64,000 nt of DNA from Malacoraja senta (GCA_038087875.1 CM075992.1:6016001-6080000), one strand, 5' to 3'. Shown: positions 1,480-51,236, counted from the stretch's first letter. A program made the numbers and translations. The notes: generated from the sequence alone by a model not told the origin.

Positions 1480-1920
1480 AGTGTATGGAGGAGCTGCAGA
1501 TGCTGGTTTAAACCGTAGACAGACACAAAATGCTGGAGTAACTCAGCGGGACAGGCAGCATCTCTGAAGAAGGGTCTTGACCCGAAACGTCACCCATTTC
1601 TTCTCCCCAGAGATGCTGCCTGTCCCGCTGAGTTACTCCAACTTTTTGTGTCCATCTCCCAACAACACGAGTATGTTTGAAGAGTCTGAAGAAGAGTCTC
1701 TACCCGAAACATCGCCCATTCCTTCTCTCCAGAGATGCTGCCTGTCCCACTGGTTATTCCAGCTATTTGTGTCCATCACGAGTATGTGTAGTTTAGGAAG
1801 GAACTGCAGACGCTGGTGTAAACCGAAGATAGACGCAAGAAGCTGGAGTTATTCAGTGGGTCGGGCAGCATCTCTGGAGAAGAATAGGTGACGTATCGGG
1901 TCGAGTCCCTTCTTCAGACA
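1480..1920. repeat. Cluster of Penelope-tail-derived palindromic repeats with hammerhead-like cores
   Basis: Inverted arms (agacacaaaatgctggagtaactcagcgggacaggcagcatctct and its reverse complement) around CTGAAGAAGGGTCTTGACCCGAAACGTC at 1564-1591; related to the Penelope tail at 25467-25563. Confidence 0.8.
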
Positions 1921-1962
1921 GATACTCTGAAGCTAGCGTACTGATGGTGTGATAGCTGGTAT

Positions 1963-2265
1963 GTTTAGTTTAATTTAGTTTAGAGATACACTGCAGAACC
2001 AGGCCCACCGAGTGACTGACTAGCGATCCCCGCAAATTAACACAACCCTACCCAAACCAGGGACAATCTTTTATATTTACACCAAGCCAATTAACCTACA
2101 AACGTGCACATCTTAACATACAAAACGAATATCTCAGAGAAAAACCCATGCATGTCACGGGGAGACCGTACAATCTCTATACAGACATGTATCTATAGTC
2201 AGAATCGAACCCGGGTCTCTGGCGCTGTAAGGCAGTAGCTCTACCGCTACGCCACCATACCGCCC
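1963..2265 (-). mobile_element. tRNA-derived SINE (HE1/V-SINE type)
   Basis: A-box and B-box (gggttcgattc) head, central core, (TAAAC)n tail on the minus strand. Confidence 0.8.
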
Positions 2266-2529
2266 ATATGTATGTATAGGAAGGTAGACACAAAATCCTG
2301 GAGTAACTCAGCGGAACAGGCAACATCTCTGGAAGGAAGGAATGCGTGACATTTCAGGTGGAGACCCTTCTTCACACTGAGAGTCTGAAGACTATCGGAA
2401 GGAACTGCAGGTGCTGCTTTAAACCGTAGACACACACAAAAAGCTGGAGTAACTCAGCAGGTCAGGCAGCATCTCTGAGAAAAGGAGTAGGTGATGTTTC
2501 GGGATGAGACCCTTCTTGTGTCTACCTTT

Positions 2530-2794
2530 CCAACACCATGAGGCTGGTTGCACTAGTTCTATTTATCCCACTTGCTCATCCACTTCTTACACACAAGGGG
2601 CAAATTACAGAGACCAATTAACCTGCAAACCCACATGTCTTTGAGATGTGGGAGAAAATTGGAGTACCCATGGGAAACCCACATGGTCACAGGGAGAACA
2701 GGCAAACTCCACACAGACAGCACCCGAGGTTAGCATCGAACCCAGGTCTCTGGCACTGTGAGGCAGCAGATTTACCAGCTGTGCCACCGTGCCA
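2530..2794 (-). mobile_element. tRNA-derived SINE (HE1/V-SINE type)
   Basis: Minus-strand head ggcacggtggcacagctggta...gggttcgatg plus core. Confidence 0.75.
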
Positions 2795-3872: not shown

Positions 3873-5376
3873 CTGCACACAGACACAGAGCGACACAGTA
3901 TTATCATCAGCCAGCGGCAACCCTTGCTTATTTTGTGCCTGTGTCTTCATCAAGGTGACTGATGATTGTGACCTTCTTCCCACCCCTCGGTTTGCATCAG
4001 GCCCATGGCATCGAGCATGCAACGGGTATTGTTCCCGTACAATGGGCTCCAATCCCCCCCCCCCCCCAATCCATTAATTGTGCAACACAATCCCGACTCA
4101 AGTCTTCAAAAGGACAACATACTTCCTCCATCAATTACAAATGTTAAGGGAGGTAAAGAACAAGTGTTAGGATATATACAGGAACACAGAACAGTACAGT
4201 AAAGCACAAGAGCAGGCCCTTCGGCCCACAATGTTTGTGCTGAACATGATGCCAAGTTAAAACTAATCTCCTTTGTCTGCACTTGATCCATGATGCAAGT
4301 CTGATAAAGGGTTCTCGACCCGAAACATCACTTATCTATGCTCTCCAGAGATGCTGCCTGAGTGCTTTAAAGATGGGAACTTGCATTTACATGGAACAGC
4401 ACAGGAACAGGCCCTTCAGCCCACAACGTCTATGCCGAACATAATGCCAGATTAAAGTAATCTCCTCTGCCTACACATGATCCATATCCCTGCATATCCA
4501 TGTGCCTGTCTAAATGCCACATTCGTATCTGCCTCCACCACCACCCCCACCCTTGGCAGCTCGCTTCAGGCAACCAACAATGGAAATATGGAACTCAGGG
4601 ATAAGAGATGAGTGCGCGGAGGAGGAGAAAGTAGCGGAGAGGCAAAGGTGGTGAGATCTCACCAACTGATCAAAATCATCCTGTTACCCATGAATGTCAT
4701 CCTCACTATCATCATCACCTCCCACTCTGTACCTGCGATGCTGCTGCAAGCAAGATTTTGATTTGAGGACACAAGGTGCTGGAATAACTCAGCGGGCCAG
4801 GCAGCATGTCTGGAGAACAGGTTCTCCAGAGTTGCTGCCTGACCCAGTGATTCAATAATACTTTACAGTCACACGTACCTAGGCACAGTGACATTCTTTG
4901 CTTATGCCCGCTGAGTTATTCAAATCAAATTCCTCGTATGTTGCAAAACATACTTGGCTAATAAGTGACGTTTCGGGTCTGAAGAAGGGTCTCGACCCGA
5001 AACGTCACCTATTCCTTCGCTCCATAGATGCTGCCTCACCCACTGAGTTTCACCAGCATTTTTGTCTACCTTTGATTTTTCCTGCATCTGCAGTTCTTTA
5101 TTAAATACTTGGCTGATCACGTATGATTATGATTATGGTTATTCCTGCACTTTGTGTCCTTTTGTGTAAATCAGCATCTGCAGTTCCATGTTTCTACAAG
5201 ATCTTTCTTAGAACTGTGCTCTTCACCATACTTGTGCTGATGACAATATACACCAATTGACCCCTTCACTTCGCACCTTACTAGCCTCTAGTATGGCATC
5301 AGAAGGTAGCTCACTTACTAAAGTCCGACCCAATAGGGAAAGTTCAACAAGCAAGCTCTAGATGATTCGCACTTAC

Positions 5377-5467: not shown

Positions 5468-5868
5468 CTGGAAGAAATTCAGTCGCTTTGATACAAAACT
5501 TTCTTTCTTCCCGCCAGCCCCCCCCCCCCCCCGCCCATCTCAATCACACTCGGTCACATTCAGTGCAGCAGCTGGGATAGTGCAGTGCACTAAATCCGAC
5601 AGCTGGTAGAACATAGAACAAAGTGCAGAAGATAGGCACAAGGTGCTGGAGTAACTCAGTGGGTCAGGCAGCATCTCTGGAGGGCATTGATAGGTGACGT
5701 TTCGAGTCGGGACCCTTCTTTAGACTAAAAGTCGAGGGGAGAAAGACAGCTCACAACAGGTGCATGGAATAGTGATCCTGCCTCAAGGAGGGTAGCCAGA
5801 GGTTCAGTCTAAGAGGCGTAATTTGGAGAAGGGTTTTAGGGCGAGGAGGGAAGATTTGGAATCAGAGT

Positions 5869-7104: not shown

Positions 7105-7174
7105 TTCATTCAGTAATTTTAGAGTACTAAAATAGAGGCCTTCCTTGGGTAATGAACAGGTTCCATCTTTTAGG

Positions 7175-7705: not shown

Positions 7706-9315
7706 AACGTTTAAAGATACAAAGTGCTGGAGTAACTCAGCGGGTCAGACAGCATCTCTCGAAAACACGGAGAGGCAACGTTTCAGGTTGAGATCCTTCT
7801 TAGGACCTGAAACGTCACCTATCCAGGTTCTCCAGAGATGCTGTCTGACCCGCTTTGTTACTCCAGCGCACTGTGTCTTTTTTTTGGTACTTTCTGTCAT
7901 TACGCGGAGACTGAAGAAGGGTGCCGACCCAAATGTCACCTCTCCCTTTTCCCCAGAGAGCCACAAAGTTACTCCAGCATTTTGTGTCTGTCTTTTGTGA
8001 AAATGAATGAGTTGGCCAGGATGGATTGGGAAATTTCTTTGAAAGACAGGACATTGGAAAGGCGGTAGCTAACATTTAAAGAACAAATGCAGGAGCTGCA
8101 ACATTTTTGCTTTGCTCTGCGGAGTGAAAAGAGAAACCAATTCAACGATGCTCAACAGGAAATGTTAAGGATATTATTAAATCCAAAGGGGATCTCAACC
8201 AACCACCTTTTGTCAATTAGCCTAAATCTTTCTAATCTGCTAAAGGCCCCAGCAGACACATCTCCCCTTATTTATTCTGCCACAAACCTTTGTTATTGTG
8301 CATCCTGGTTTAATAACACATCGAACAGTACAGCAAATGAACAGACAGTCACAGGGTGAACATGCAAGTTCCACAAGATCAAGAATGGGTGTCAAGGGGA
8401 GAAACAGGAAAATGGGATTAGGAGGCAGAGATCAGCCATGAGTGAATGACGGAGTAGACTCAATGGGCCGAATGGCCTAATTCTACTCCCATAACGTGGG
8501 AACTTGTCAGGATCGAACCCGGTTCTCAGGTGCTGTGAAGGTACACAAAAATACTGGAGAAGCTCAGCGGGTGCAGCAGCATCTATGGAGCGAAGGAGAT
8601 AGGCAACGTTTCGGGCCGAAACGTCGCTTATCTCCTTCGCTCCATAGATGCTGCTGCACCTGCTGGGTTTCTCCAGCATTTTTGTGTACCTTCGATTTTC
8701 CAGCATCTACAGTTCCTTCTTAAACTCTCAGGTGCTGTGAGGTTGAACCTCTACTAGCTGCGCCACTGGACCACCGCAACACACAAAAATACATCAAATT
8801 CAAAAAATAAAATGGTGATGCTGGAATTCTGAAACAAAAGCAGAAAATGTTGGAAAAACACAGCTGCTCAGGCAGCATCTGTGGAAACAGTCAAGAGGGG
8901 AAACAATGAACTACAGATGCTGGTTAATACAGAAAAGAACACAAAGTGCTTGAGTAGCTCAGCGGGTCAGAGTCTGAAAGAGGGTCTCCACCCAAAACAT
9001 CATCTATTCATGTTCTCCAGAGATGCTGCCTGGCCTGCTGAGTTACTCCAGCACTTTGTGTCCAAGAGTCAAGTGTTTTTATTTGTTCGAAGACAGACAC
9101 AAAATGCTGGAGTAACTCAGCGGGGACAGGCAGCATCTCTGGAGGGAAGGAATGGGTGACGTTTTGGGTCGAGACCCTTGTTTGAAAACAGAATAATGAA
9201 ATCCTTATTTGCAGCAGGTTAACAGCTATCAATGTTGTGGATCTGTGACCCTCCATCAGAGATGAAGCAATATCTCTTTTTGTTTTAAATTCTGCACTGG
9301 GTCTCTCTGACTTAC

Positions 9316-10459
9316 CTGCTGTATTCTCGCTTGTCAGAGCTTGTTCTGTCCGATGAACCTCTTTCACTGGCGATTCTTGCTCTTGGGATGCCATGGCCGT
9401 TGCTTTGGAGCTGCCTTCGTTCCTGAAGGACGCATCAAGAGAAGAACTCTCCACGTTACTCTGATGCTCAAGAGGTTCCATTGCAAGCTGGGTTTCGGGC
9501 CAGGAGCAGAGAGCACCGGGCACGTTACTGGTCGCCTCTCCGCCGCCTTCACTCGACATCGCCGCATCTCCCTTGCCTCCATCGACGGGACTTTGATGGA
9601 AGCACTCCATGCCGTTGCCATCTCTCGCACAGGCAACTTCAAACTCATAGGACATCGGGTCGACCGAAGTGCTTATATCTTCTTCCGTCTCGCAAGACAC
9701 GTCGAAGCTGTAGGAAACCGGATCCAAAGAGGTATACTGCACCTCCTCGCCGCACGTCACATCGTACTCATAGGACATCTGGTCCAGCGCGGTGTACTGG
9801 TTCCCATCGCGGTCACAGGACAAATCAAACCCGTACAACATCCCATCCTCGGACGGGCCACGGACCGCGCTTAGCGTGTGCATATCCTGCTCCTCATGCA
9901 TGTAAGTCGTCAGCAATCCCTTACCTCCTACTTCGGAAAGGTTTAGATTGATTCCGTCCAAGATATTCTCTGGCAGGCAGGTGTTGAAAGAACTTGGCTG
10001 GCTGCAACGGTTGGGAGCAGCCATCAAGTTCTCCGTCAGCAGGGGATGTGTTGGAGCAGGTCCAAGCTTGGCTCCCACTGGTCTTGGATCAGATTGAATC
10101 GGTTCCTTGTGGACTTGCGGTTCTAACGGACTCGCTGGCTTGTAGCTGGGGGGGTCCGGGAACTGACTGTCAAACTCTACCCCGTGTCTCGAGCCCGCGA
10201 GTGTCCTCAGCTGCGGTGGGATCCCGTCAAGGGATTGCTCACGCTCCAGAAGACAGGTGGTCCCACCACTGACCCCCTCCATGACACTCAGGTGCAAACT
10301 GGTGTTTTCCTCCCCTCCTGAACTCTGTGGAGGTCTGGCATGGACCACTTGATCTCCACATAGGTTCAGCACATCATCAGGGCTACAAAATCCCTTGTTG
10401 ATGTTGGTCTGCAGCTCTTCATCCCATTGTATTAGCTCCTGATGATTGCTTTTCTCCAT
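9316..10459 (-). CDS. Large coding exon (381 codons +1 nt) of an unidentified acidic, probably disordered protein with an internal ~20-aa repeat
   Basis: Uninterrupted non-TE ORF; acceptor ttcttgtcttccag (exon starts 10529), ATG 10459, donor CAG|GTAAGT at 9315. Confidence 0.8.
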
Positions 10460-11342
10460 TGAACTGATGGGACAATGGAGTACTATTGTAAATCGGCATA
10501 TAATTTTATGACTAGGAATCTTCTTTTAACTGGAAGACAAGAAGTTTATAATAAAATTAATTGCAAATCCAATAACCACATATTTTATTCACCAAATTCA
10601 ATCCCATCAGCATCTTACCCAATCTTCACAATTTATAGATTCCAATCTAATTGGAAACGAATTACCAATCAATTAATAGACTATCAGTCTATTACCAGGG
10701 GACACAAGGAACTGCAGATGCTAGCAAAACACAAAGTGCTGGAGGAACTCAGTGGGTCAGGCAGCATCTGCGGAGGGAATGGACAATCAATGTTTCAGGT
10801 CGGGATCCTTCTTCAGACTGTTTGCAATGGGGGAAGAAAGCTGGAAAGGGGAGGTGGGGTGGGACAAAGTTTTGAACATGATCGGTAGATACAGGTGAGG
10901 GGGGTAGTTTTAATTGCAGATGGGTGGAGCGAGTGAGAAAGATGTGAGGTGTAAAGGAGACTAAAGGGCGTCAGGTAAGGAGAGAAATGGAGGAGTGAAA
11001 TGTAAAGCTAGTGGGAGGGGAAGAGGGGGCGATAAAAGGTCAGTGAGGGATTTTGGGATGGGAGATGAGTATATGAAGGAAGGTAAAGGAGCAGGGTGAC
11101 TGGGGAAGTGGGAGATTACTCATCTTTACCAATCTCTATACAGTTTATGACTTACACTTCTGTCCTTTTCCCAGTTATGCTTAGTCAGGAGTCAATAGTA
11201 TTTGATGGTCGTATGTGCTGTCAATGGAGTAATGAAATTCTTACTTGTTGCAGTTTAGCAGGCCTGTTAATGCAACAACACAGAAATATATAATGATCAA
11301 TAAATTAATAACAGTAAAACTTGGTAACCACAATAGTACAAA

Positions 11343-11660: not shown

Positions 11661-11919
11661 CCAAAGTCGGCAGTGCAACCAAAGACACAGTGCATAGAAG
11701 ATCATGGGTCGGTCATACCCTCTACAGGTGCTGCCTGACCTGCTGGGTTTGTCCAGCACGCTTTTTTCCTCAAGATTCCAGCATCTGCAGTTCCTTGTGT
11801 CTCCATAGAAAATCATAGTCCAGGTTAATGTTGAGCAATGTTCAAGAGCCTGATGGTTACAGGGAAGAAGCTGTTCTTGAACTCGATAGTCATGGTTTGC
11901 AGACTCCTATACTGTTTTC

Positions 11920-12160
11920 CTGCCTCAATGATTTCTCGTGCAAAACAAGATCTCCATCACAAGTACTGACCTCCCCGCCATCAAATGGAGGTGGTGCTAC
12001 CTCAAAAAGGCAGCCAACATCATCAAGAACCCACACCAGCCTGACCACGCCCTTACTTCATTCCTGCCATCAGGAAAAAGGTTTAGGGGTCTGAAAACCA
12101 TGATGTCCAGTTTCAGGAACAGCTTCTTCCAAAAGAACAATCGGGCTCTCGAACATTATA
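11920..12160 (+). mobile_element. Rex1/Babar-like LINE 3' fragment
   Basis: Translation KKAANIIKNPHQPDHALTSFLPSGKRFRGLKT..FRNSFF resembles the ORF2 C-terminus of this clade. Confidence 0.65.
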
Positions 12161-13789
12161 TGTGTAAGAGGGAACTGCAGATGCTGGTTTAAAACGAAGA
12201 TAGACATAAAATGCTGGAGTAAATCTCTGTTGTGCTGAAGCAAAGCAAGAATTTCATTGTCCCATCAGGAACACATGACAATAAACTCTCTTGAATCTTG
12301 AATCTTGAGTAACTCAGCGGGACAGGCAGCATCTCTGGAGAGAAGGAATGGGTGACATTTTGGGAGAAATTTGAAGAACTGTCTGAAGAAGGGTCTCGAC
12401 CCAAAACGTCACCCATTCCTTCTCTCCAGAGATGCTGCCTGTCCCGCTGAGTTACTCCAGCATTTTGTGTTTATCTTGAACATTACAAATAGCAACTGAA
12501 CTTCGAACTACAAACTGACATGGTTGCACTTGCGTTCAGTATTTTGTTTTGTTTTGCTACATATTGTCAAACCTGTTGTGCCGCTGCAAGTAAAAATGTC
12601 ATTGTTCCGTTTTGGTACATATGACAATTAAACATTCTTGTCTTTCTTGACCCCCGCAGATAAATAACAAACATCAAGGTGTGAAGATGGGTCCAGAACT
12701 GAAACATCATCCTTCCACCTCCCTCTGAAGAAGGGTCTCGACCCGAAATGTCACCCATTCCCTCTCTCCCGAGATGCTGCCTGTCCTGCTGAGTTACTCC
12801 AGGTTTTTTTGTCTATCTTTGGTTTAAACCAGCATCTGCAGTTCCTTCCTACACCTTCCACCTCCCTCCGCAGATGCTGCCCAACCTGCTGAGTTCCTCC
12901 AGCAGTTTGTCTTTTACTCACGATTCCAGCATCTGCAGTCTCATGCCACCAATGTGAAGGAGAGATGGCGATCAGTTTATTTTTTAATAATAATTGCTTC
13001 ATCAACAGCTGACAAGGATGACTTCACCAGCACCATAGCATCATGAAAATCCTGACCTCACCCTATCGTAGATACTTCCATTGTCCCCCAACCACTGCAA
13101 AAAACTGACATGTCTTACTTTTCCAGTACTCCTAAAGGCTTTTTGACCTGAAAGATCATCCATTTTGTTCTATATCTCTCTACGTCACCGCTTATATCTC
13201 TCGTTTCCCTTTTCCCGACTCTCAGTCTGAAGAAGAGTCTCGACCAGAAACGTCACCTACTCCAGAGATGCTGTCTGACCAGCTGAGTTACTCCAGCTTT
13301 TTGTGTCTATCCCTATCCATAGATGCTGTCTGACCTGCTCAGTGTTCATCTTCTGCTTTCCTACTGGATTTTCTTCTCATTTTGTTTTGCTTTTTCTTCT
13401 TTGGTTGCGATAAAGACGTTGGCCTTTTATGCAGTAGTACTGTGGTTGTCAATTCATCAAAACTATTGATTATTATGCATTATCTGGGTGTATTGTGTTA
13501 CATGCCTGTTATGATGCAGCAGGTAAGAATATAATTGTTCTGTTGTTGCTTCATATGACAATTAAACACTCTTGACTCTTGTTTGCAAATGAATGTTGAT
13601 GAGTCAGTAGTGAAACTGCTCTTCCCTTTAAAACTTTAGTTAGATAGGTAGATAGAGTGGTAGAGGCAAGATAGACACAAAACACTGGAGTAACTCAGCG
13701 GGACAGGCAGCATCTCTGGAGAGAAGGAATGGGTGACGTTTCGGGTCGAGACCCTTCCTCAGACTGATAAATATTCAGAGTGGTAGAGG

Positions 13790-15510: not shown

Positions 15511-16998
15511 AGTCATAGAAAGATACAGCATGGAAACAGGCCCTTCAGCCCACCAATCCATGCTGATAATCAGAGACTAAATTAGTTAAAAGATACAGCA
15601 TGGAAACAGGCCCTTCAGCCCACCGAGTTCACGCCAACCATTGATCACCTAATGATACTAGTTCTATGTTATCCCACTTTCGCATCCACTCCCTACATAC
15701 TAGGGGCAATTTTCCGAGGGCAAGTCTTTGGGATGTGGGAGAAACTGGAGTAACAAAAGGAAACCCATATGGTCACAGGGAGAAAGTGCAAACTCCACAC
15801 TGACAGCACGAGAGGTCAGGATCGAACCGGGGTCTCTGTTGCAGTGAGGCATACCAGGCCAGAAATGGGTCAACTAACAGGCAAGAGGCTAGATCTCTTC
15901 TGCAGAGAAGGATATGGGCAGCACAGCGACACAGTTGGAACAGCTGCTGCCTCACAGATCCAGCGTCCCGACTCCATCCTGACCTCGTCTGCTGTCTGCG
16001 TGGAGTCTGCACGTTCTCTCTGTGACCCCGCAGGCTTCCTCCGGGTGCTCCTGTTTCCGCTCACATCCCAAAGACTTGCGGGTTTGTAAGTTAATTAGCC
16101 TCTGTAGATTGTTCTTGATGGGAGGCAATTGCCAGACCCTGGGAGGGTGCTGAGATGGTGGGAAACTTGGCAGGAATAAGGTGGTATTTGTGTGGTGCAA
16201 ATAGGTGCTTGACTCTCCATTCCCTACATGTCCATGAGTCTATCCAAACGCCTCTTCAACCTCACTATTGTATCTACCTCCACCATCACCCCTGGCAGCG
16301 TTACAGGCACCCATCACACTGTGTAAAGAAAACCTTGCCTCCCATTCATGTCCTTTGTGTTTTGCTACTGAAATAAATAAATAGCAGGCCAGGGTTGTGG
16401 GAGGATGCAGATTAGTACATTCACTGATACCTCCGTGAGCTCTTTCCAAACCAACATTAATGAGCCAGATGGGCAAGCACACCAACGTACAGTTAGGGAT
16501 TTGTGTTCTGCCCTGTGATTCATTCACAAAATGTATCCAAATGCTTGGCATGTTTCAACATGGAACATCTTTGCAACAGAACGGTGAATGCAGAGCAGAT
16601 GTAATTGGAGCTTGATTAATGCATGAACGTTTCAGATTTTTATTTTCAGGCACTGCCTCAAATTGAAAGTTTAACGGTGTATTTTTCCCTCTGCAGCTCA
16701 TAGATACTTTCATAAAGTAAGCAGCCAACGCCTCCACTTTTTTTGGGAAGTTTAAAGCGGTTCGGTATGTCGCCAATTACTCGAACAGGCTTCTACAAAT
16801 GCGCTGTAGAAAGTAATGAAAAATGAACTGCAGATGCTGGTTTATACCAAAGGTAACACTCAAACTGCTGGAATACCACGGTGGGTCAGGCAGCATATCT
16901 GGAGAAAATGCAGAGAAAACATAGGGGGATCCGTTGTGGGGGGCGAGGCCACCGAGAACAAAGGGGGACCATTGGGGACTAAATGGAATGGTTTGTCA

Positions 16999-17318: not shown

Positions 17319-17994
17319 TAACTTTGTCGGCGGCCTTTTTTGTGGCCACTCTCTGCATACCTGTATATGCAAAACAAAGGATCCTACTGTGACATGTCAC
17401 ATGTGATTATCATTCATTCACAATGAACTTGAACTTGAGCTAATATATATATATTTTTAAATATTGAATCTCTGCAGAATCCCTCGGAAAAGAGTAAAGG
17501 GATATCTGACCTGTCACTGCATGGTTGAGGAAGGCATGGTTTTATGAGTGGTGAATATCATGGCCAACGGTCTAGTCTTAGCTGGGGGGACTCTCCACCA
17601 CAGTCATCTTCACTGCCGAATTTATCTGTGATAACATCCGAATAAAATCGGTGCTGGTTACAGGAAGGTTACCCTTCAAGAAACACAAAACAGAGTTAAC
17701 ATGTAGCTAGTCCTCAACAGGCATTGTCCTCCAATTCTTTTCAATACCAAAAGCAACATTGTTCCCAGATTACTCCTGGCTCCTTTTACAGAACTTAGAT
17801 CAGTGCAGGAATTAGAAACAAAGAACTGCAGATGCTGGTTACAAGAAAAAAAAAGGACACAAAGTACTGGAATAGCTCAGAGGGTCAGGCAGCATCCCGG
17901 GAGTCTGAAGAAAAGTCCCGACCCGAAACATAATCTATCCACATTCTCCAGGGATGCTGTCAGTTATTCCAGTCCTTTGTGCTGTTTTTTAATA

Positions 17995-18830: not shown

Positions 18831-19449
18831 TTTGTGCTCACATTATTAACATGATGTTGCCACAGTTACTACCTCTGGAGGAGAGTTTCACAGCTCCACA
18901 GCACTCAGTGAAGAGGATTCTATTCCCCAACAGCATCAGTCTCCTATTTTTAAAGTAGACACAAGGAACGGCAGATGTTGGTTTACCAAAAAAGACACAA
19001 AGTGCTGGAGTAACTCAATGGGTTAGGCAACATATCTGGACAACGTGGATTGGTGATGTTTCGAGTCTGAAAAAGGGTCCCGACAAAAACAAAATCACCT
19101 ACCCATGCTCTCCAGAGATACTGCCTGATCCACCGAGAATGCATCGCCTGGGGTGGTGGTGGAGGCAGATATGATAGTGGTGTTTAAGAGGTTTTAGAAA
19201 GGCACATACAAGTGCAGGGAATAGAGGGATATGGATTATGTCCAGGCAGATGAGATCAGTTCAGCTAGGCATCATGTTCAGCATTAACATTGCGGGCCAA
19301 AGGGCCTGTTCTGTGTTGTACTATTCTATGTTCATATAGTTCTCAACATTGCAGTGTATCAGTTCCACAGACAAAGCCCAGTGTCCACAATGGGGTAGAT
19401 GTCAATCGGACAGTACTAGTTTGTGGAAGGGCCATTCAGTAGCCTGATA

Positions 19450-21299: not shown

Positions 21300-21530
21300 A
21301 GGTTCAGCCCCAGCGCGCCCGCCGGACGTCCCGCCCCCGCGCCCCTCCCATTGGCCGCCCCGCCGTCCATCAGCCGCCAGGCCCGCCTCCCCGCCGCGTC
21401 CATTGGCCGCCAGCGCCGCGGGGGGCGGGGTCCCCGGAGGGGCAGCGTCGTCCGCCATTGGCCGGGCCGGCTGCCAGTCACCCGACCCGACCCCCGCTTC
21501 CGCTCGGCGCGCAATGGCAGCGGGAGAAGG
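21300..21530. promoter_or_regulatory. CpG-island promoter with three CCAAT boxes (ATTGG at 21350, 21402, 21457) and GC boxes
   Basis: CATTGGCCG three times, interleaved with CCGCCC/GGGGCGGGG; dense CpG. Confidence 0.7.
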
Positions 21531-21534
21531 GCAG

Positions 21535-22260
21535 GGGGAGAGTGTGTGATGGAGAGGAGAGTGTGTGATGGAGAGGAGAGTGTATGTGATGGAGAGTGAG
21601 GGGGAGAGAGAGAGAGAGAGAGAGTGATGGAGAGGAGAGTGTGTGATGGAGAGTGAGGGGGAGAGGAGTGTATGTGATGGAGTGTATGTGATGGAGAGTG
21701 AGGGGGAGAGAGATGGGGATAGTGTGTGTGTGTGTGTGTGAGAGAGAGATGATGTCAGGTGAGAGATGGGGGAGATTGTTTGTGGGGAAGAAAGTGAGAG
21801 AGAGAGGGGGGGAGTGTGAGGGGGAGAGAGAAGGAAAAGGGGTGGGAGAGTGAGGGGGGAGAGAAAGGCGCGAGGGGTGAGGGAAGAGGGGATTAGGGGA
21901 GAGAACTTGGGGGTGAGAGAGAGAGGAAGGGGTTAGGGGAGAATGAGGGTGTGAGGGGCGAGAGCATGGGATCGAGGGTTAGGGGACAGCTTGGGGCGAG
22001 GGGGTGAGAGTTAAGGGAGAACTGTGGGCGAGAGTGTGAGGGGGAGTGTATTGGGGACTGCATGGGGTGAGGGGGAGAGCGAGGGTGTGGGGACGATGGG
22101 TCGGGGAGCATCAGGGGTAGGGAAGAGCATGGAGTGAGGGTAGGAGGAGGAGTGGGAGAGGATTAGGGGTACGAGGGGTGTGGGAGAGCACAAGATCAAG
22201 GGTAGGACGGTGAGAGGGTGGGAAGCGTGAGTTGAGGGTTAGGAGGTCAAAGGGAGAGAT
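21535..22260. repeat. Purine-rich low-complexity region (19-bp gtgtgtgatggagaggaga units, (GA)n, (TG)n)
   Basis: Read directly. Confidence 0.85.
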
Positions 22261-30695: not shown

Positions 30696-33600
30696 CTACT
30701 AATACTTAAATGTAATTTAAAAGGTTTAGATTCAAACGATAGAGAATTATTAGAAAGGGAGATTACGATAAAGGATATTGAGGAGTCTATTGGCTCTTTA
30801 AAAAATGGTAAAGCAGTAGGACCAGATGGTTTAGGCTCTGAATTCTATAAAAAAAATTATGACTTGCTCTCCCCACGTTTACAAAGGCTGTATGAGCATA
30901 TCTATACTCAACAGAAACTTCCAGATACTTTAAATGAATCTATAATAACACTTATTCCTAAAGTTGATAAAGATCCGGAAGATCCGGGATCATATAGAGC
31001 AATTGCACTTTTAAATACAGATCAGAAAATATTAACTAAAATACTAGCACATAGATTAAGTACAGTGATGAATAAATTAATACACCCTGACCAAACAGGC
31101 TTTATTCAGAAACGGTACTCATATTATAATCTAAGAAGATTATTTAATATTATTTATTCTAAGAGAATTATTAATGAAGATCTAGCAATAATCTCACTTG
31201 ACGCTGAAAAAGCATTTGATCAGGTTGAATGGTCTTATTTATTTTCGGTGATGGAAAATATGCAGCTAGGGGAGAAATTCTGCACATGGATAAAACTGTT
31301 ATATACAAACCCTACGGCTAGAATATTAACAAACCAAAGGTTGTCATCTAAATTCAGCCTATCTAGAGGTTGTAGACAAGGATGCCCGTTATCTCCATTA
31401 TTATTTGCGCTTGCTATTGAGCCACTCGCAGAAAGAGTTAGGGGTCATCCGGAAATACATGGGTATAACACAAAGGACACAGTGAATAAAATTTCTCTAT
31501 ACGCAGATGATGTACTAATTTACATTACAAAACCAGAAATTAGTATTCCAAACTTATTAAAGCTAATAACCCAATTTGGTTCACTCTCAGGATACAGAAT
31601 AAATTGGAATAAAAGTGAAATTATGCCAATAAGGGAACACAACAAACAGATAATACAACAATTTCCATTTAAAATAGTAAACGAAAAATTTAAATACCTA
31701 GGTATTTACGTAACTAAGATATATACATCATTATTTAGGGAACAAGAGTTAGCTATTAAAATTTCAAAGGAAAGTTGGAATGAATACTTATTAAAAGTGC
31801 ATAAATGCTCGATTAATGTAAGACACACTTTAATACAATTTAAAATTTTACATAGATTATATTATTCGAAAACTAAAATTCATAAAATTTTCCCAAACGT
31901 ATCATCTATTTGTGATAAATGTCAATCCCAAGAAGCAACTATAGCGCACTCATTTGTCTTCTGTACAAAAATTCAAAAATTTTGGAAGGAAATTTTTGAA
32001 ATCTTTACAAAGTTATTTAAAACAAGACTGATACCCAAAGCAGAATGGATTATCTTCGGAATAACGGAAGATGATCCAGAACTAAATGTGTTTCAAAAGA
32101 AATTAATGGATTATGGGTTAATAACTGGAAAAAAGCTAATTCTAAAATTTTGGAAGAAGGCTCCAATACCAACTATAAATATGTGGATTTCAAATATGTT
32201 TGAAACATTACACCTTGAAGAGATAAGACTCCTCCTAGCAGGTAAACCAGATCACTTCCACCTGACGTGGTCTGCATTTATAGAATTATTACAAACATAG
32301 GGTGCAAAAGTACTTTAAAAAAAATAAAAAATTGAGGTCGGGTAAGGGGGGATGATAGTTGAAGAGTTGGTATGTCCTATTTACGTGATGCTCAAAAAAA
32401 AACATTTGTTTCTCTTTTTTTCTCTTTCTCTTTTCTTTTCTTAGGGCCTATTTCTTAACTCTTTTTCTTTTTGTTTTTAATTATGCTCTTATAGGGTCTT
32501 CGTCCTTTTTTGTTGTTACATTTTCTACACTTTTCTACACTTGCACTTTTTCCTTCACTTTCTTCTCTCTTTCAATCTTTTCTTTCTCTAGTGTAAAAAA
32601 ATAAATAAAGGGAGTACATTAATTGTAAGAAGATATAAATGACGAGTATTAATGTATGTGGTTGTAATGTAATGTACTTCTAATAAATAACAATTAAAAA
32701 AAAAAAAAAAAAAAAAAAAAATTATTTAAAGCAAATTTCCCCCCATTACTGAACAAACTACATAAGAATATTCAATATTGGAAAACACTTCCTATCTCAA
32801 TGGTTGGCAAAATTAATGCCATAAAAATGATTTTTTTACCGCAAATATTATACCTTTTTCAGACAATGTCAAAATATTTGTCAAAAAACTTTTTTTTTAA
32901 ATTGGATTCCATTGTTAATGATTTTATCTGGGATTATAAGAATCATAGGATAAACAAAAGACATTTGTGTAAATCAAAAATAAATGGTGGCTTGGTTTTA
33001 CCCAACTTTCTGTTTTATTTTTGGGCAGTTAATATTAAAAATATGAATTTCTGGTTGGAAGAAATAGATCAACAACCAAATTGGTTAAAAATGGAAAAGG
33101 AAGATTGTTTACCTTTTGATATCGGCTCGATATTACTTGCTACGTCTAAATTAAACAAAAAAAATTATAGGGAAAACCCTATAATATTTAGTGCTATACG
33201 AATTTGGAAACAATTAAAAAAGACATTAAAATTAGATAATTTATCACTTTTTCTTCCAATTGTGAATAACCCTTTGTTTAAGCCCTCATGGTTGGACAGG
33301 GGTTTTACACAATGGAAGAATTATGGAATTAAAAATATGGGACAACTTTACAAGGAAGGCACTTTTCTGACATTTCAGGAGTTGCAACAGACTTATGGAC
33401 TCCGAGGAAATGATTTTTTCAGATATCTTCAACTCAGAGATTATGTAAAATCGAATACTCAAAATTTTCGAATTAGAAATTCAGAAATTCTTGACGAATA
33501 TTGGAATAAACATCCTAATACAGAAAAATTAATATCTTATATATATAATATTTTATTAGACAGTGACATTCCATCGACGGACTTACACAGACAAACATGG

Positions 33601-34200
33601 GAAAAATAATTAAATCAAATAATAACGAAAGATACTTGGGAAGAAAGTTTACAACACATACATCAATGTTCATTAAATGCCAGACATTCTTTAATACAAT
33701 TTAAAGTAATACATAGGTTACATTATTCAAAAACAAAATTACATAAAATCTTTCAACATATCTCACCTATATGTGATAAATGTCAACATTTAGAAGCTAC
33801 CTTATCTCATATGTTTGCAAACTGTATAAAAATAAAAAAATTCTGGGTAAATATTTTTAGTATAATATCTAAAGTGACCAGCACACAATTGGACCCGGAT
33901 CCAAAATTAATAATACTCGGAACATTAGAATTAAATCAAACATTTACAACAACACAAAGAAACTTTATTGATTATAGTATAATAACGGGAAAAAAATTAA
34001 TTCTAAAATGTTGGAAAGGCCCTATAACCCCCACAATCAAAATGTGGATTATAGAAATGACGGAGACCTTAAACGTGGAAAGAATCAGATTTTCCCTGTT
34101 GGACAAACAGGAATTATTCGTTGGAACATGGTCTCCCTTTATTGATTATTTAAAGGGTCAGAATGGTTCAGCACAGGAACCTGACGAACACTCGGGCTAA
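30696..34200 (+). pseudogene. L1 ORF2 remnant (no endonuclease; interrupted by a second L1; stop at 33607-33609)
   Basis: Frame opens at 30696 (KAVGPDG, RT), resumes at 32729 (KANFPPLLNKL..MVGKINAIKM), ends in a CxxC..H..C knuckle. Confidence 0.9.
31738..32720 (+). mobile_element. 5'-truncated L1 inserted into ORF2 of the larger L1
   Basis: Own ORF2 C-terminus (CDKC..H....C), T-rich UTR, AATAAA, poly(A) 32696-32720; 8-bp duplication attattta at 31730-31737 and 32721-32728. Confidence 0.9.
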
Positions 34201-36059
34201 AGAATGGATGAAATGCTATACTCTGAAATGTACGAATATATCTCGAATCCAGTTTTTTATTTTAATAAATTTTTCCATTCTTCTTTAACTATCTTTTTCT
34301 TTTCTGTTTTGTTTTTTGTTTTGGGGGGGGGTTTCTTCTTTTTTTTTTTTTCTCTCTCTTTTCTTCTCTCTCTTTTCTTTCTTTACTTCATCTATCTTTT
34401 TAGTTCTATCTAGTTTAAAAAAAACAAAAAAAGGCAAAAGGTATTGGAGACAATGTAATAATAATTGACAATATTATCAATTCAAAAATGTAAGACTGTA
34501 ATGATGTTAATAGGTTGTGTACTTATCTCCAATAAAAAATATTAAAAAAAAATAATTAAAAAAAAGAGGGAGGGTGAATAAGGGGAAACGAGCTGCCCCC
34601 GCTCAGTTGGGGGCTATGGGTGAGTGGTGGAACATTACATTGGGGGAACGGGTTGCGTTGGGGGAACGGGTGAGTGATGGAAAATTGTGTTGGGGTACGG
34701 GTTGCGTTGGGGGACCAGGCCTTCTGTGGGGGCTATGGGTGAGTGGTCGAGTATTGCGTTGAGGGAACGGGTTGCGTTGGGGATCAGGCCTCCCGTGTGA
34801 CAGGGACCCAACGGGTCCCGCTTAGTCTAGTATGACAATAGAATTCTCTCGACTTGAAATTACTGCACAGATGGCCGCAGTACCAATAATACCCCGTTGA
34901 TGGCGTTGGTTAACGACTTGTACAGTTGCACAGGGCAATGTGAAATGGACAGAAATGCTGCATGTCAGGTCTAAATGTTTCTGGTTGATAAAGGAACGTT
35001 AACTTAAAGAGAGAGTCAAGAAACTGCAGATGCTGGAGTCTTGAGTAAAAAGCAAAGTGTTGGAAGAACAGCGGGTCAGGCAGCATTTGTGGAGGGAATG
35101 GACAGGCGATGTTTTGGGTCAGTACCCTTCTACTGATTTTCTGATCAGTCTGATCAACTTGATCAAGGGATACAAAATGTCTGTCCCTTCCCTCCACAGA
35201 AGTTGCCTGACCTGTTGAGTTCCTCCAACACTTATTTTTTTGCTCACTTAAAACCTCAATTATTTTTCTCTCTCCACAGATGCTGCCTGACATGCTGAGT
35301 ATCTCTGAGAGTTATGGTTTTTATTTCATATTTATCAGAAATTCCACTCTAAAAAAAGAAGACTGTATATATGTTAATCTGATTTGTTTGCATCTCTTAC
35401 CCAAAAAGTGGTTGTAAAAGTGGGTAAAAAAGTGTGTCTGAAGAGGTTCGCTAGTACTACTTAGGAGGGTTTAAACTAGAAATGCAGGGGGTTGAAACCA
35501 AAGTAGTACGTCAGATATTGGAAGGGGTAGAAAGGGTGAATGCACAGAATCTTTTACCCAGTGTAGGACAATCAAGAACCAGAGGACAGAGGTTTAATGT
35601 GGGTGGGGAAAGATTTAATAGGAACCTGAGGGGCAACTATTTTACACAGGATGCTGGCTATATGGAACATGCTGACAGAGGAGATAGTTGAGGCAGGTAC
35701 TATAGCAACATTGGGTTCATTAGAGACAGTCAGCATGACTTTATACACGGCAGATCGTGTCTTACTAAATTGATCGGGTTTTTGGAGGAGGTGATCGATG
35801 AGGGTAAGGAGGTGGATGTTTACATTTTAATAAGGCATTTATTAAAGTCCCCTGTGGTAGTCGGCTGATCTAGAAGATTAAGATGCACAGGAGTAATAAT
35901 GATTTGGCCGTATGGATTCAGAACTGGATTACTGACAGAAGACAGAGGGTTGTGATGGAAGGACAACATTCAGGGTGAAGGTCTCTGACAGTGATGTTCT
36001 GCTGGTATCTGTGCTGGGACCGTTGCTGTTTGTGATATAATATAATTGACTTGAACATA

Positions 36060-42046: not shown

Positions 42047-42083
42047 TAATTAGTACCTAAGTCACCTACACATGCCAGCACAT

Positions 42084-46087: not shown

Positions 46088-46804
46088 CCTGCTTTCTCCC
46101 CATATCCTCTGATTACAATTCCACTTCCTGATCCCCAGCTCTCACAGGATCCAAGGTCACGTTCTCACTTGCAGCCCCCGTGCGGAGCCGTGGAGGATAT
46201 TTACTTGCCTTGGTTGCTCCAACAGCTCCTTCCAAACCTGTGACCATTATCACCGTAGGAAAAGGGCTTCAGTTACTGGGAACACCACCACCCGAAGGTT
46301 CCCCTACAAGTCATTCACAATCCTGATTTGGAAACTGTTTGCTGATCCTTCGTCATTACTGGGTCTAAATCATGGACCTCACCTTGTGAGCAACTAATAT
46401 TCTGTTCCTTGAGCCGAGACACAACCAGTTCCTCACCACCAACACACTCGCTGCTCTGGCTGAATTCATTCTCACATTCAACAACTTGTCCCACAACTGA
46501 GCACAAGCTACACCTGCACCTTCACTGAGATAGATGGAGCAGTCCTTCTTTCAGTCTCTCCCCCTCAACTCTTTCTCCATGGCTGCACAGGTGCTGTTCT
46601 CCGCACGTTACAGAAAGTGGACATATTCAATTTGTTTTACTCCAGTTTCCCTGGTGCTCTGTTGAAACAAGGAACTGCAGTTGCTGGTTTAAAAAAGAAG
46701 AAAGAAAGTGCGGTGGTAACTCAACAGGTCAGGTAGCATCTCTTGAAAACCGCCACGAACGTCTTTTCGCAATTTGAGAAGGAGAAGGTTAAATCGGAAG
46801 TGTC
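46088..46804 (+). repeat. Local segmental duplication, copy 1 (copy 2 at ~51478-52189)
   Basis: Near-identical ~700 bp including the same CR1 5' junction. Confidence 0.9.
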
Positions 46805-49017
46805 AGTGATGCAGTTGAACAAAGGGGACTATGAAGGCATGAGAGAGGAGCTGGCCAAGGTAGACTGGAAAGGGATGCTAGCAGGAATGACGGTGGAACA
46901 GCAATGGCAGAATTTCTGGGCATAATCCCTAAGACGCAGAATCATTTCATTCCAAAAAGGAAGATTCTAAGGGGAGTAGGAGGTAACCGTGGCTGACAAG
47001 AGAAGTTAGGGATAGAATAAAACGAAAAGAAAAGATGTATAACACAGCAAAGAGTAGCCGGAAGCCAGAGAATTAGGAAACTTTCATAGGACAACAGAAG
47101 GAAACAAAATGGGCAATATGGGCTGAAAAGATGAAGTACGAGATGGCCAGGAATATAAAGAAGGACAGTAAAAGCTTCTTTAGATATGTTAAGGGAAAAA
47201 GAATAGTCAAGTCAAATGTGGGTCCCTTGAAGGCAGACACAGGTGAAATTATTATGGGGAACAAGGAAATGGCAGAAGAGTTGAACAGGTACTTCGGATC
47301 TGTCTTCACTGAGGAAGACACAAACAATCTCACAGAAGTACTGGAGGACAGAGGGTCTAAGGGGGTAGAGGAACTGAAAGAAATTTTCATGAGGCGAGAA
47401 ATAGTATTGAGTAGGCTAATGGGACTGAAGGATGATAAATCCCCTGGGCCTGATGGTCTGCATCCTGGGGTCCTCAGGGAGGTGGCTCTAGAAATAGTGG
47501 ACGCATTGGTGATCATTTTCCAATGTTCAATAGATTTAGGATCAGTTCCTGTGGATTGGACGATAGCTAATGTTATCCCACTTTTCAAGAAAGGAGCGAG
47601 AGAGAAAATGGGGAATTACAGACCAGTTAGCCTGACTTCGGTGGTGGGAAAGATGCTGGAGTCAATTATTAAAGAGGTAATAATGGGGCATTTGGATAGC
47701 AGTAAAAGGATTAGTCCAAGTCAACATGGATTTATGAAAGGGGAATCATGCTTGACTAATCTTCTGGAATTTTATGAAGATGTGACAAGTAAAATGGATG
47801 AAGGGGAGCCAGTGGATGTAGTGTATCTAGACTTTCGGAAAGCCTTTGATAAGGTCCCGCACGGGAGACTGGTGACTAAAATTAGAGCACATGGTATTGG
47901 GGGTAGGGTGTTGACATGGATAGAAAATTGGTTGGATGACAGGAAGGAAAGAGTAGGAATGGGTCCTTTTCAGAATGGCAGGCAGTGGCGAGTGGAGTGC
48001 CGCAAGGCTCGGTGTTGGGGCCGCAACTGTTTACCATATATATTAATGATTTGGAAGAGGGAATTAGGAGCAACACTAGCAAGTTTGCGGATGAGACAAA
48101 ACTGGGTGGAAGTGTGAAATGTGAAGAGGATGTTAGGTGGTTGCAGGGTGACCTGGACAGGTTGAGTGAGTGGGCAGATGCGTGGCAGATGCAGTATAAT
48201 ATAGATAAATGTGAGTTATCCACTTTGGTGGCAAAAACAAGGGGGCAGATTATTATGTCAATGGGGTTTGGTTAGGTAAGGGGGAGGTACAGCGAGACCT
48301 GAGTGTCCTTGTACACCGGTCACTGAAAGTTAGCGTGCAGGTACAGCAGGCAGTGAAGAAAGCTAATGGAATGATGGCCTTCATAACAAGAGGATTTCAG
48401 TATAGGAGTAGAGAGGTTCTTCTGCAGTTGTATAGGGCTCTGGTAAGACCACATCTGGAGTATTGTGTACAGTTTTGGTCTCCTAATTTGAGGAAGGACA
48501 TCCTTGTGATTGAGGCAGTGCAGCGTAGGTTCACGAGATTGATCCCTGGGATGGCGGGACTGTCATATGAGGAAAGATTGAAAAGACTAGGCGTATTCAC
48601 TGCAGTTTAGAAGGATGAGGGGGGGATCTTATAGAAACATATACAATTATAAAAGGACTGGACAAGCTAGATGCAGGCAAAATGTTCCCAATGTTGGGTG
48701 AGTCCAGAACCAGGGGCCACAGTCTTAGAATAAAAGGGAGGCCATTTAAGACTGAGGTGAGTAAAACCTTTTTCACCCAGAGAGTTGTGAATTTGTGGAA
48801 TTCCCTGCCACAGTGGGCAGTGGAGGCCAAATCAGTGGATGGATTTAAGAGAGAGTTAGATAGAGCTCTAGGGGCTAGTGGAATCAAGGGATACGGGGAG
48901 AAGGCAGGCACGGGTTATTGATTGGGGACGATCAGCCATGATCACAATGAATGGCGGTGCTGGCTCGAAGGGCTGAATGGCCTCCTCCTGCACCTATTTT
49001 CTATGTTTCTATGTTTC
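46770..49017 (+). mobile_element. CR1 LINE, 5'-truncated, frameshifted ORF2
   Basis: ORFs 47131-48117, 47985-48275, 48335-48610, 48682-48921; ctatgttt tail. Confidence 0.95.
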
Positions 49018-49380
49018 TTCCACGGTGATCTCACCTTCTCCCAGTCCTTCTCAGGAACTCCCCTTCGCATCTGGATCTCAGGAGAGAAGCCATTCACGTA
49101 CATCCTTTGTAATCTATGAATCTCCACAGCTTTCTTTACCTTAACGTGTAGGAAGGAACTGCAGATGGTGGTTTACACCAAAGATAGACACAAAATGCTG
49201 GAGTAACTCAACGGGACCGGCAGCATCACTGGAGAGGGGGAATGGGTGACGTTTCAGACGGAGGAAGAGTCTTGACCCAAAATGTCACCTATTCCTTCTC
49301 TCCAGAGACACTACCTGTCCCGCTGAGTTATCTTTATCTTAGTCCCTCCTTCGCATACACCTACACACACGTGCACACAT

Positions 49381-49415
<35 letters not shown>

Positions 49416-51236
49416 CTCACACACACACACACACACACCATGGTAAGGCATAGTATAATGAATAACGGGGAACAGCACAGGCCCCCCCCCCCCTCCTTCC
49501 CACTCTGGGACATCAGTCCAGGGCAAAGACTGGGCCTAGGGGGGCAGCCGACTACCTGGATGCTCCAGGATTGTTTTGCAGATCCCTGGAATTAAGGAGT
49601 AATTTCCTGGCGGCTGCACTGTGCAACTTCCAAAAGAAATAGCACAGGGTTGCGGTGGGTTGTGTCAGCTGGGTTCAATCAATCCAAAGTATTGATTGAA
49701 CCCAGCTGACATTCTAAATATATTAGAGATTGGGAGATGAGTTTATGGACCAGCCAGGTTCCTTGGATGGAGACCGTGTCATGCTGAGGAACATGTCCCA
49801 TTGGGTCAGCAGTGCCAGCTGCCGTGGTCACTCCTGTCCCAAGCTCCAGCCTAGGCTCAGTGTACTACTAAACATCACCAACTTCTCGTTCTCACCCAAC
49901 AAACAGCTAACAATGACCTGTTTCCTTTATCATCATTACTTTTTTGCATATCTTTCATTCATGTTTTATTATCTCTCTTCATCATCGTCTATACTCTCAT
50001 TTCCCTTTTCCCCAACGAGTCTGAAGAAGGGTCTCGACCCGAAATGTCACCCATTCCTTCTCTCCAGAGAAGCTGCCTGTCCCGCTGAGTTACTCCAGCA
50101 TTTTGTGTGTGTCTTTGGTTTAAACCAGCATCTGCAGTTCCTTCCTGCACTAAACATCAATGCAGGAATGGGCATCACCTCCCCACACCTCCCCCTGGTG
50201 GTGTCCATAAGTACCTACACCTCTCCCCACACGTCCTTGGGTACATGCTGCCGACTGGCACATCGAGACTACAGGTGTAAGATGCAAGTGGCCTCCCCCC
50301 TCTGGTAAAAGCAGGAGAGATCCAGAAATGGGGGGCAGCTTGATGGCTAGATCACCATGGAAACATGCAGCAATAAAATGAGACATTTCTCATCTGTCAC
50401 GTGCTGATGAGAACACCAGTGCAGCAATCGATGCGTTGGAGGAAGAGTTGATGGAGTGGGTCCAAATAGGACAAACCAGAATTGCTCAATTTATCCCGTG
50501 GACAGACAGGTGTAGATTGTGCTCAGTTCATAAGACCTGGGGGCAGAATTAGACCATTTGGCCCATCGAGTCTACACCACTATTCAGTCATGGCTGTTCT
50601 GTCTTTCCCTCTCAACCCCATTCTCTTGCCTTCTCTTGCCTTCTCCCGGTAACCCCTGACACGTGTACTAATGAAGAACCTATCAATCTCCGCTTTAAAA
50701 AAACTCGAAGACTTGGCCACTAGCAGAAACAGCCTCTCCATATTCTTTCCATCCAGGCCTTTCATTCTTCAGTAAGTTTCAATGAGATGCCCCCATCATC
50801 CATCTAAACTCCAACAAGTACAGGCCCACAAACGGTGGGTTCAGCCAGAGCAGCGAGTGTGTTGGTGGTGAGGAATTGGTTGTGTCTCTGCTCAAGGAAC
50901 AGAATATTAGTTGCTCACAAGGTGAGGTCCATGATTTAGACCCAGTAATGATGCAGGACCAGCAAAGTATTTCCAAATAGGGTTGTGCATGACTTGGAGG
51001 GGAACCTGTGGGTGGTGGTGTTCCCAGTGCCTGAAGCCCTTTTCCTATTTGCTGATAAAGGTAAAAATGTCTGGAAGCAGCTGTTGGAGCAACCAAAGCA
51101 AGTAATCGACTGACTTCCAAGGACATTTCCTGCAGTATTTAAGAGTCACCACATAGACCAGGCCTGGTGATCACACCAGGTTAACAACAAGTAAACATTG
51201 TGATTTTGTTGTTAACGATTGTCACTGTTTACACAG

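Follow-up and report, generated by a model that had tools for sequence, protein, structure and literature searches.

A likely Neptune-type Penelope-like element and its dispersed, often fold-back terminal-repeat insertions in a 64-kb stretch of the Malacoraja senta genome

Penelope-like elements (PLEs) of the Neptune and Nematis groups encode a GIY-YIG endonuclease with a CCHH motif and a CX2-5CxxC linker, the latter absent from Penelope/Poseidon (PMC8557442), and carry a hammerhead in their pseudo-long terminal repeat (pLTR); for their insertions, the available text of PMC8557442 and PMC3846280 describes 5′ truncation, an inverted and 5′-truncated copy whose junction has palindromes and microhomology, an optional 30–40-bp tail on one side, solo pLTRs, and variable target-site duplications. 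The same anatomy is found in 64,000 nucleotides of Malacoraja senta DNA (GCA_038087875.1 CM075992.1:6016001-6080000; hereafter the window, with positions counted from its first letter). The window family differs from the described Neptune and Nematis elements in its extreme density, in consisting mostly of pLTR-only insertions, in having 5′ ends that cluster at the first base of the hammerhead, and in duplications of 10–17 bp, versus 8–10 bp in rotifer PLEs (PMC8557442; PMC3846280). We hold it to be probable that these repeats are separate insertions of the pLTR of a Penelope-like (likely Neptune) element, which start at the hammerhead motif and stop at either of two points separated by about 35 nt, and which were likely made by the element's reverse transcriptase (RT)-endonuclease from uncleaved RNA and are likely decaying without function.

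The minimal type-I hammerheads described from metazoan PLEs (PMC4209133) share with the window family the CUGANGA box, an extra base after A9, the G10.1–C11.1 pair, the GAAA box, a palindromic 15.2–16.2, and UH; in both cases the motifs are mostly single and dispersed, the published set including pairs 100–700 bp apart on opposite strands. Stem II has 5 bp here versus 7–8 in Schistosoma, and stem I has 2 bp, as in a Drosophila virilis variant, versus 4–5; according to the same source, monomers of minimal PLE hammerheads did not cleave and dimers cleaved weakly (PMC4209133). For PAc, a Poseidon element of the green anole, the Penelope protein is a predicted dimer that uses uncleaved RNA, starts reverse transcription at two internal RNA sites between which the tail lies, and nicks and extends both DNA strands (PMC11167929). 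The window insertions resemble those of PAc in having two end points that bound a tail, in running through the cleavage site, and in the distance of an end point from the start of stem II (116–124 nt for the farther point, site B, versus 111–118 nt in PAc), whereas PAc lacks the linker zinc finger and has an open reading frame (ORF) that starts at stem II (PMC11167929); head-to-head products are not addressed in the main text of that study. Metazoan non-LTR retrozymes (PMC7229834; 10.64898/2026.07.22.740005) are likewise non-coding, pLTR-related, high in copy number, and probably moved by PLE proteins, with a type-I hammerhead, but they form head-to-tail tandem units with canonical, efficiently cleaving hammerheads and circular RNAs (PMC7229834), whereas the window copies are dispersed or head-to-head and their motifs minimal and mostly decayed.

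Every structural feature of the window family is already published for PLEs (see also PMC8969392), and we expect that the repeat is probably already in Repbase or Dfam under some name. The combination of a PLE with a minimal hammerhead has been reported across fish, amphibians, and reptiles, and the window family adds one more. The titles and abstract openings searched contained nothing about this family or about elasmobranch PLE hammerheads, and two of the three supplements of PMC4209133 contain no shark or skate terms (file 1 lay outside the search). What rises above the routine is that the clustered 5′ ends and one-sided tail make the integration mechanism testable; the family is a natural experiment in which PLE inverted terminal repeats and the role of the hammerhead are open to the counting of ends and junctions.

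The coding element (24306-25561, plus strand) is 5′-truncated and comprises a frameshifted RT thumb region, a CX4CxxC linker, GIY-YIG, a 3′ untranslated region (UTR), and the pLTR; it sits inside a CR1-like long interspersed nuclear element (LINE) and is flanked by a 12-bp target-site duplication (24294-24305 / 25562-25573). Positions 24306-24854 align with the C-terminal RT region of RT-GIY proteins, and no RT catalytic core was found within the window. The reading frame at 24790-25353 (plus strand), with the linker zinc finger and the endonuclease, matches Pfam GIY-YIG just under the cut-off (E 1.4e-4; 22.5 bits versus 22.6), contains by eye a CxxC between the two GIY-YIG motifs followed by two His, as in CCHH endonucleases, and has a linker within the CX2-5CxxC range of Neptune and Nematis. 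The best relatives of its product, at 60–66% identity, are proteins of whale shark, devil ray, zebra shark, and stingray; that of the zebra shark (P0003) continues into a peptide that matches the translated hammerhead motif (SLMKGLRPKR vs. SLKKGFGPKR). By linker and endonuclease sequence the element fits the Neptune/Nematis class, and it is likely of the Neptune type. Its pLTR carries the minimal type-I hammerhead motif at 25471-25498 (plus strand), with predicted cleavage after 25498, so that the motif does lie in the tail of a coding Penelope, where a preliminary description of this DNA had placed it. The very high copy number claimed there is also upheld by contigs that align to the coding copy: 78,759 from a single run of the organism that matches the window best and 87,503 from a second organism. 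Summed depth is highest in the pLTR bins, depth not being a copy number, and in the second organism the coding part and pLTR are covered and the 3′ UTR barely so; 5,555 contigs of a run guessed to be RNA (X18) also align, which indicates neither transcription nor ends. An isolated second GIY-YIG coding fragment lies at 62779-62871 and is 75% identical to the coding copy. The 3′ UTR (25353-25470) has a pyrimidine tract and CAG right before the hammerhead and so looks like a splice acceptor; an intron of D. virilis Penelope ends at helix I (PMC4209133), and no GT-AG joint to the acceptor-like site was found among the 15 of 267 joints listed.

An iterated profile built from the window finds 52 fragments (4,511 bp), and none in any of 10 shuffled windows; by eye, these represent about 37 insertions, which occupy 7% of the 64 kb, a short insertion about every 2 kb. 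In the numbering used here, C3 of the hammerhead is position 1 and the predicted cut follows position 28. The motif is present at every place named in the preliminary description, and the pattern quoted there has two exact matches in the window (4979-5006; 13735-13762, minus strand), six with at most one mismatch, and 21 with at most six. The copy at 1564 has a single loop/stem change, those at 12725 and 50021 have one stem III base altered, that at 12383 has a broken core (G12 to A), and that at 13227 has lost two pairs of stem II; a separate subfamily, with two U–G pairs in stem II and a GUU end, is represented by the coding copy (25471-25498). Copies do occupy the range first given, 1500 to 50060, and others lie outside it (145-406, 52062-52160, and 63908-64000). 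The statement that the motif is often central between inverted arms is right in part: by eye, 14 of about 37 insertions are head-to-head fold-backs (1564, 4979, and 12383 among them), and the named short copies at 12725, 13227, 13735, and 50021 are solo. A minimal-hammerhead descriptor has four matches (4979, 13762, 25471, and 50021), whereas 100 shuffles average 0.03 matches and never give more than one. The Rfam hammerhead models have no match in the window at E up to 1 or 10, as expected because the motif has no closed stem III, and the Rfam scan gave chance hairpin matches only, below gathering score; a degenerate pattern of the 28-nt motif matched nothing among viral or metagenome contigs.

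The copies have the ends of target-primed insertions. Direct repeats of at least 10 bp (10–17 bp) flank 13 of 34 tested boundaries, versus 9 of 150 random intervals; boundaries were judged by eye, two of the rows represent merged events, and one of the 13 is doubtful (a 10-bp repeat at 2275/2393 that may be internal homology). From these repeats we conclude that the copies are separate insertions, at least three of which are nested in or beside older copies. By eye, 3′ ends fall at two points, site A about 89–96 nt and site B about 125–133 nt after C3, and the roughly 35 nt between them correspond to the optional PLE tail. On the other side, 22 of 27 core-bearing copies have at most 10 nt of upstream homology as measured against four references, the 5723 copy has 11, and four run on (an offset of 3 nt in one anchor, 35153, does not alter this by eye); the 5′ ends pile up at the first bases of the hammerhead and not at the cleavage site. 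Contigs of two organisms agree: the 24 of 3177 loose ends listed include ends before the pLTR at 25465-25475 with unrelated flanks (three runs), ends behind it at 25555-25564, and ends behind 25504-25505, where the other subfamily diverges, and none at the cleavage site (25498). As the ends do not lie at the cut site, the templates ran through it, as in the anole study in vitro. The copies at 13227 and 50021 continue about 60 nt upstream into a shared pyrimidine-rich, 3′ UTR-like sequence; an extra G before the first AGT was considered as cap-derived and dropped, the 50021 copy having the same G inside continuing homology. An account of the two end points by alternative stems, in which two similar motifs, one ahead of site A and one ahead of site B, pair with one upstream strand, was also set aside, such pairing appearing in the folds of some copies only. 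The copies are end pieces of about 100–130 bases, and likely dead, decaying by-products of insertion.

Among the 14 fold-backs, nine have the core between long arms, three have one very short arm, and two lack the CUGANGA box. Arm-to-arm identity is 74–100% over aligned stretches in the 13 examined, and the arms meet at microhomologies of 3–4 nt, the inverted arm being 5′-shorter. In five of the 14, a 3-nt microhomology joins stem II to the bases before the core, and these five differ in subfamily and outer ends; two others are the palindromes without CUGANGA, and the remaining ones use other microhomologies. The tail, scored by eye, is on the inverted arm only in seven of the nine long fold-backs, on neither arm in one, and unclear in one. 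In a weakly resolved tree of 44 of the 51 aligned fragments (those with at least 45 bases in the region; 77 columns), the fold-back label is scattered among solo copies (12 changes for 12 rows, a figure that none of 500 shuffles exceeds), and the coding copy at 25471 is joined by 4979, 8527-8628, and 8601-8716 (support 99/96). A MITE-like family descending from a single master does not describe them, in that outer ends and junctions differ and the label does not cluster, few as the columns are. Scattered on the tree and with differing ends, the fold-backs are therefore a recurring product and not a one-master family.

A tail on the inverted arm only is an outcome that simple cDNA snap-back cannot give, and that priming of both nicks, one from site A and one from site B, does. 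In such a mechanism the RNA would begin, or carry a strong stop, immediately ahead of the hammerhead; a start of reverse transcription at the first pLTR would yield a stub of 95–130 nt, and one at the downstream pLTR of a read-through RNA would yield longer, coding copies. Where both nicks prime, the site A cDNA would reach the 5′ end first and anneal by microhomology to the site B cDNA, most often at stem II, giving a fold-back whose core lies on the tailless arm. The hammerhead would be kept intact in source elements, and there would cleave only as a dimer or with the help of protein. Taken further, the genomes of sharks and rays may preserve, at what could be hundreds of thousands of sites, the traces of past Penelope integration: a dimeric RT-endonuclease would prime the two nicks from two start points on a single uncleaved RNA, and site A cDNA that has run to the 5′ end at the hammerhead's first base would anneal to site B cDNA at stem II and so always leave the core on the tailless arm; this full account is tentative, and we give it somewhat less than an even chance. 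If true, it would account for two features long without explanation, the inverted pLTR and the one-sided tail; it would also locate the transcript start and provide in vivo evidence that the ribozyme does not set insertion ends.

Fold-backs of the same element origin might instead arise by self-priming (snap-back) of one strand, either cDNA or antisense RNA. Junctions on small palindromes (stem II, and a short hairpin immediately before the core at 2375) would suit this, as would the near-perfect palindrome at 8541-8725, centred on stem II/GAAA. The proposal made for rotifer Penelope (PMC3846280), in which an antisense RNA primes itself, would likewise place the tail on the 5′-shorter arm. However, cDNA snap-back cannot give a second arm that is longer at its 3′ end, as seven of the nine long fold-backs have; the antisense version requires an antisense RNA that ends at the first base of the hammerhead, for which nothing was found, and the anole protein extended both DNA strands on a sense template in vitro (PMC11167929). 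We therefore regard snap-back as a rather unlikely general explanation. A further proposal, which we think improbable, is that the commonest short subfamily is a non-autonomous element resembling a short interspersed nuclear element (SINE), with masters of its own, transcribed from the 5′ edge of the hammerhead and mobilised in trans by Penelope protein, with the ribozyme passive. The sharp 5′ boundary, the very high copy number, the 80–87% identity of this subfamily to the coding copy, and the bases just before the hammerhead (TCAGT), which we take to resemble an initiator element, are all in its favour. The potential of pLTR sequences to mobilise passengers in trans is also on record (PMC3846280). 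Against it, two members of this same subfamily (13227 and 50021) run on upstream into the 3′ UTR-like sequence, and copies of the coding subfamily occur in the same forms, as stubs and as fold-backs; moreover, the RNA required for insertion in the anole extends about 55 nt past the RT start site (PMC11167929), and by analogy a stub would lack this stretch.

A retrozyme-like family, as the preliminary description had proposed, would produce RNA that cleaves itself (in dimers, or in monomers that contain a fold-back junction), forms circles, and acts within host introns. The motif itself stands as the minimal type-I hammerhead of a PLE: it has CUGANGA, an extra A after A9 (27/28 copies, as had been noticed), a 5-bp stem II closed by G–C (G10.1–C11.1 is G–C in 19/28), GAAA, the tiny palindromic stem III that had been described (ACGU; C–G at 15.2–16.2 in 18/38, with CpG decay in most others), and UH, that is, all features listed in PMC4209133 except helix I length. 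The CUGANGA, GAAA, and UH boxes are intact in 11 of 21 full-length motifs, and an intact core is combined with five stem II pairs and a palindromic stem III in four of 21, which speaks for this reading; also in its favour, metazoan retrozymes are pLTR-derived, and one chondrichthyan genome has some (10.64898/2026.07.22.740005, available text). Same-strand neighbours exist loosely (1564 with 1686), and some contigs may contain head-to-tail joints. Yet none of the 30 tandem arrays in the window overlaps the unit, no neighbouring pair in the window has two intact motifs, and copies neither begin nor finish at the cleavage site. The canonical type-I hammerhead of retrozymes has a 6-bp helix I and loop contacts, whereas here helix I has 2 bp and a loop 1–loop 2 partner is not evident; among 12 folded loci it has 0–2 bp in 10, below the 4–5 bp of minimal PLE hammerheads, and 3–4 bp only at two fold-back junctions. 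Catalytic G12, which lies in a CpG, is A in 11/36 copies, and non-catalytic CpG guanines are changed in 11/45 and 9/38; G12 decays at the neutral CpG rate. Covariation in stem II, a check that had been suggested, amounts to one two-sided change in 28 copies, at one pair, with none at the other four pairs, and between subfamilies there are two one-sided changes that keep pairing as U–G.

Folding likewise points away from cleavage. In nearest-neighbour predictions, which include neither tertiary contacts nor protein, the hammerhead fold with stems I and II enforced is less stable than the minimum by 17.9, 17.0, 21.3, 18.5, 30.6, and 7.0 kcal/mol in six fold-backs and by 7.1–17.3 kcal/mol in six solo or coding copies, and the first stem I pair, at fold-back junctions as elsewhere, has a probability of 0.000 in all 12 loci. 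The letters of the 4-bp stem I that had been proposed at 4975-5010 are there, but they form part of a 15–16-bp inverted arm whose pairing with the cut site and GAAA gives an uninterrupted helix (–28.7 kcal/mol; z –6.7), to which the stem I fold loses by 17 kcal/mol. Co-folding of two core-only copies gives about –6 to –7 kcal/mol for the hammerhead dimer versus about –25 kcal/mol for mispaired forms, a comparison that is uninformative without tertiary terms. Dimeric PLE hammerhead variants were reportedly the subject of work by Luense et al. in 2017. In these predictions the arms of the fold-backs bury the core. The idea of a separate non-autonomous, retrozyme-like family is not borne out, given the lack of tandem arrays, the scatter of fold-backs among solos, the grouping of 4963-5104 and 8541-8725 with the coding copy, and an insertion anatomy that is the published Penelope anatomy; such a family seems to us very improbable, and on the folding predictions the fold-back copies are likely not a new self-cleaving RNA family. 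The suggestion of self-cleaving intron RNA is likewise not supported, in view of the neutral decay of G12, the near absence of two-sided stem II changes, and the predicted burial of the core; introns as such are plausible beside 9316-10463.

The reading of the repeats as decaying pLTR insertions, primed at both nicks where they fold back, has several observations against it. The copy at 4963-5104 has its tail on the core arm and a second arm of 15–16 nt, and so looks more like snap-back than twin priming; both routes may operate. Non-CpG core positions are kept better than flanks (279/299 vs. 2256/2710), also when set against the best flank (1491/1690), with the tail at 428/469. Core conservation, another suggested check, thus holds for these positions and not for the catalytic G12; it fits some selection on copies too, although we infer selection on source elements plus alignment-edge bias, and not selection on inserted copies, because subfamilies differ within the flanks and copies cannot be treated as independent. 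A non-autonomous master of the commonest subfamily is possible, no coding partner for that subfamily being seen in the window, and some "5′ ends" may be subfamily differences, because there are only four references and the 3′ UTR diverges fast. In the second organism, contigs in which 25558 is joined back to 25465 may reflect head-to-tail pLTR repeats at other sites. The folding models miss tertiary contacts, and the evidence comes from one window and 77 alignment columns.

The individual copies are as follows. Fold-backs on the plus strand with a tail on the inverted arm include 1479-1660, in which an inverted arm with tail (1479-1563) is joined by a 4-nt microhomology to a core arm (core 1564-1591) that reaches site A; 8896-9063 (core 8974), nested in an older copy, with a 10-bp duplication; 12159-12473 (core 12383, G12 to A), with the tail on an interrupted inverted arm and a 12-bp duplication; 17815-17991 (core 17905); and 49144-49330 (core 49259, damaged), with a stem II junction and an 11-bp duplication. 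Stem II junctions are also seen at 18955-19137 (plus; inverted-arm tail), at 19845-20006 (minus; inverted-arm tail; 12-bp duplication), and at 7713-7886 (minus), where both arms end at site A. The palindrome at 8541-8725, of the coding subfamily and without CUGANGA, has a tail on one arm and a 17-bp duplication; 4765-4850 is a small coreless fold-back centred 3′ of the ribozyme, and 35018-35243 is an old head-to-head pair in which both arms reach the ribozyme 5′ edge. The stub with tail at 4963-5104 (plus; intact core 4979-5006), whose short inverted arm pairs with GAAA and the cleavage site, has a 13-bp duplication, and two adjacent decayed stubs at 2281-2533 (minus) each have a 10–13-nt inverted piece at the 5′ end.

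Solo stubs on the plus strand are 1677-1773 (core 1686; 14-bp target-site duplication), 11706-11803 (coreless, with tail; 13-bp duplication), and 12725-12853, which runs with its tail from the first base of the core, is nested in the older copy 12681-12944, and has a 17-bp direct repeat. On the minus strand they are 1796-1958 (core 1917-1890; with tail and a 14-bp duplication), inside the duplication of the 1677-1773 copy; 5626-5734, with a damaged core; 9087-9185, with the 5′ core bases lost; and 13667-13776 (intact core 13762-13735), which ends at site A and has a perfect 13-bp duplication. Upstream sequence is present in 10700-10850 (minus; an older copy with pyrimidine-rich upstream sequence and tail), 13166-13311 (plus; about 60 nt in common with the 50021 copy; stem II broken), and 49962-50152 (plus; core 50021-50048, with tail). 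Further decayed fragments lie at 145-243, 327-406, 4297-4361, 5138-5189, 7905-8003, 16822-16922, 23052-23121, 35246-35307, 46671-46769, 52062-52160, and 63908-64000. Copies inserted into or beside older ones (8813-9185, 12681-12944, and 1677-1958), twice shortly 3′ of the older cut site, suggest a preference of the endonuclease for its own pLTR. Two coreless pLTR fragments, at 46635-46769 and 52026-52160, are closely similar, have common flanks on both sides and a 7-bp flanking repeat, lie just upstream of CR1-like frames, and extend about 35 nt beyond site B; they resemble a single old insertion that has travelled with another mobile element.

As for the host context, an open, exon-like segment of 1,148 nt (10463-9316, minus strand) is bounded by an AG acceptor and a GTAAGT donor, and by these bounds the neighbouring copies probably lie in introns. 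Where intronic, the many 30–80-bp inverted arms could supply double-stranded RNA. The segment encodes an acidic, weakly repetitive protein stretch, for which no relatives were found among longer proteins or in Atlas; some of its sequence words are common to runs of seven other organism labels. GC-rich, promoter-like segments lie at 1144-1480 and 21207-21550, the first adjoining the 1479-1958 cluster of copies. Another dispersed repeat family of about 100 bp occurs at 5735-5830, adjoining the 5723 copy, and in at least nine other places, and a separate 49-bp inverted repeat at 49663-49711, about 90% self-complementary, is unrelated to the pLTR. LINE frames on both strands at 29263-34200, presumably L1/Tx1-like, comprise an ORF1-like frame (29263-30219) and RT frames (30696-32300 and 32698-34200). 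An element with an RT frame (Pfam RVT_1) at 54687-59861 (minus strand) has frames upstream and downstream and is interleaved with CR1-like copies; its downstream frame resembles what we take to be DIRS-type RNase H/methyltransferase regions.

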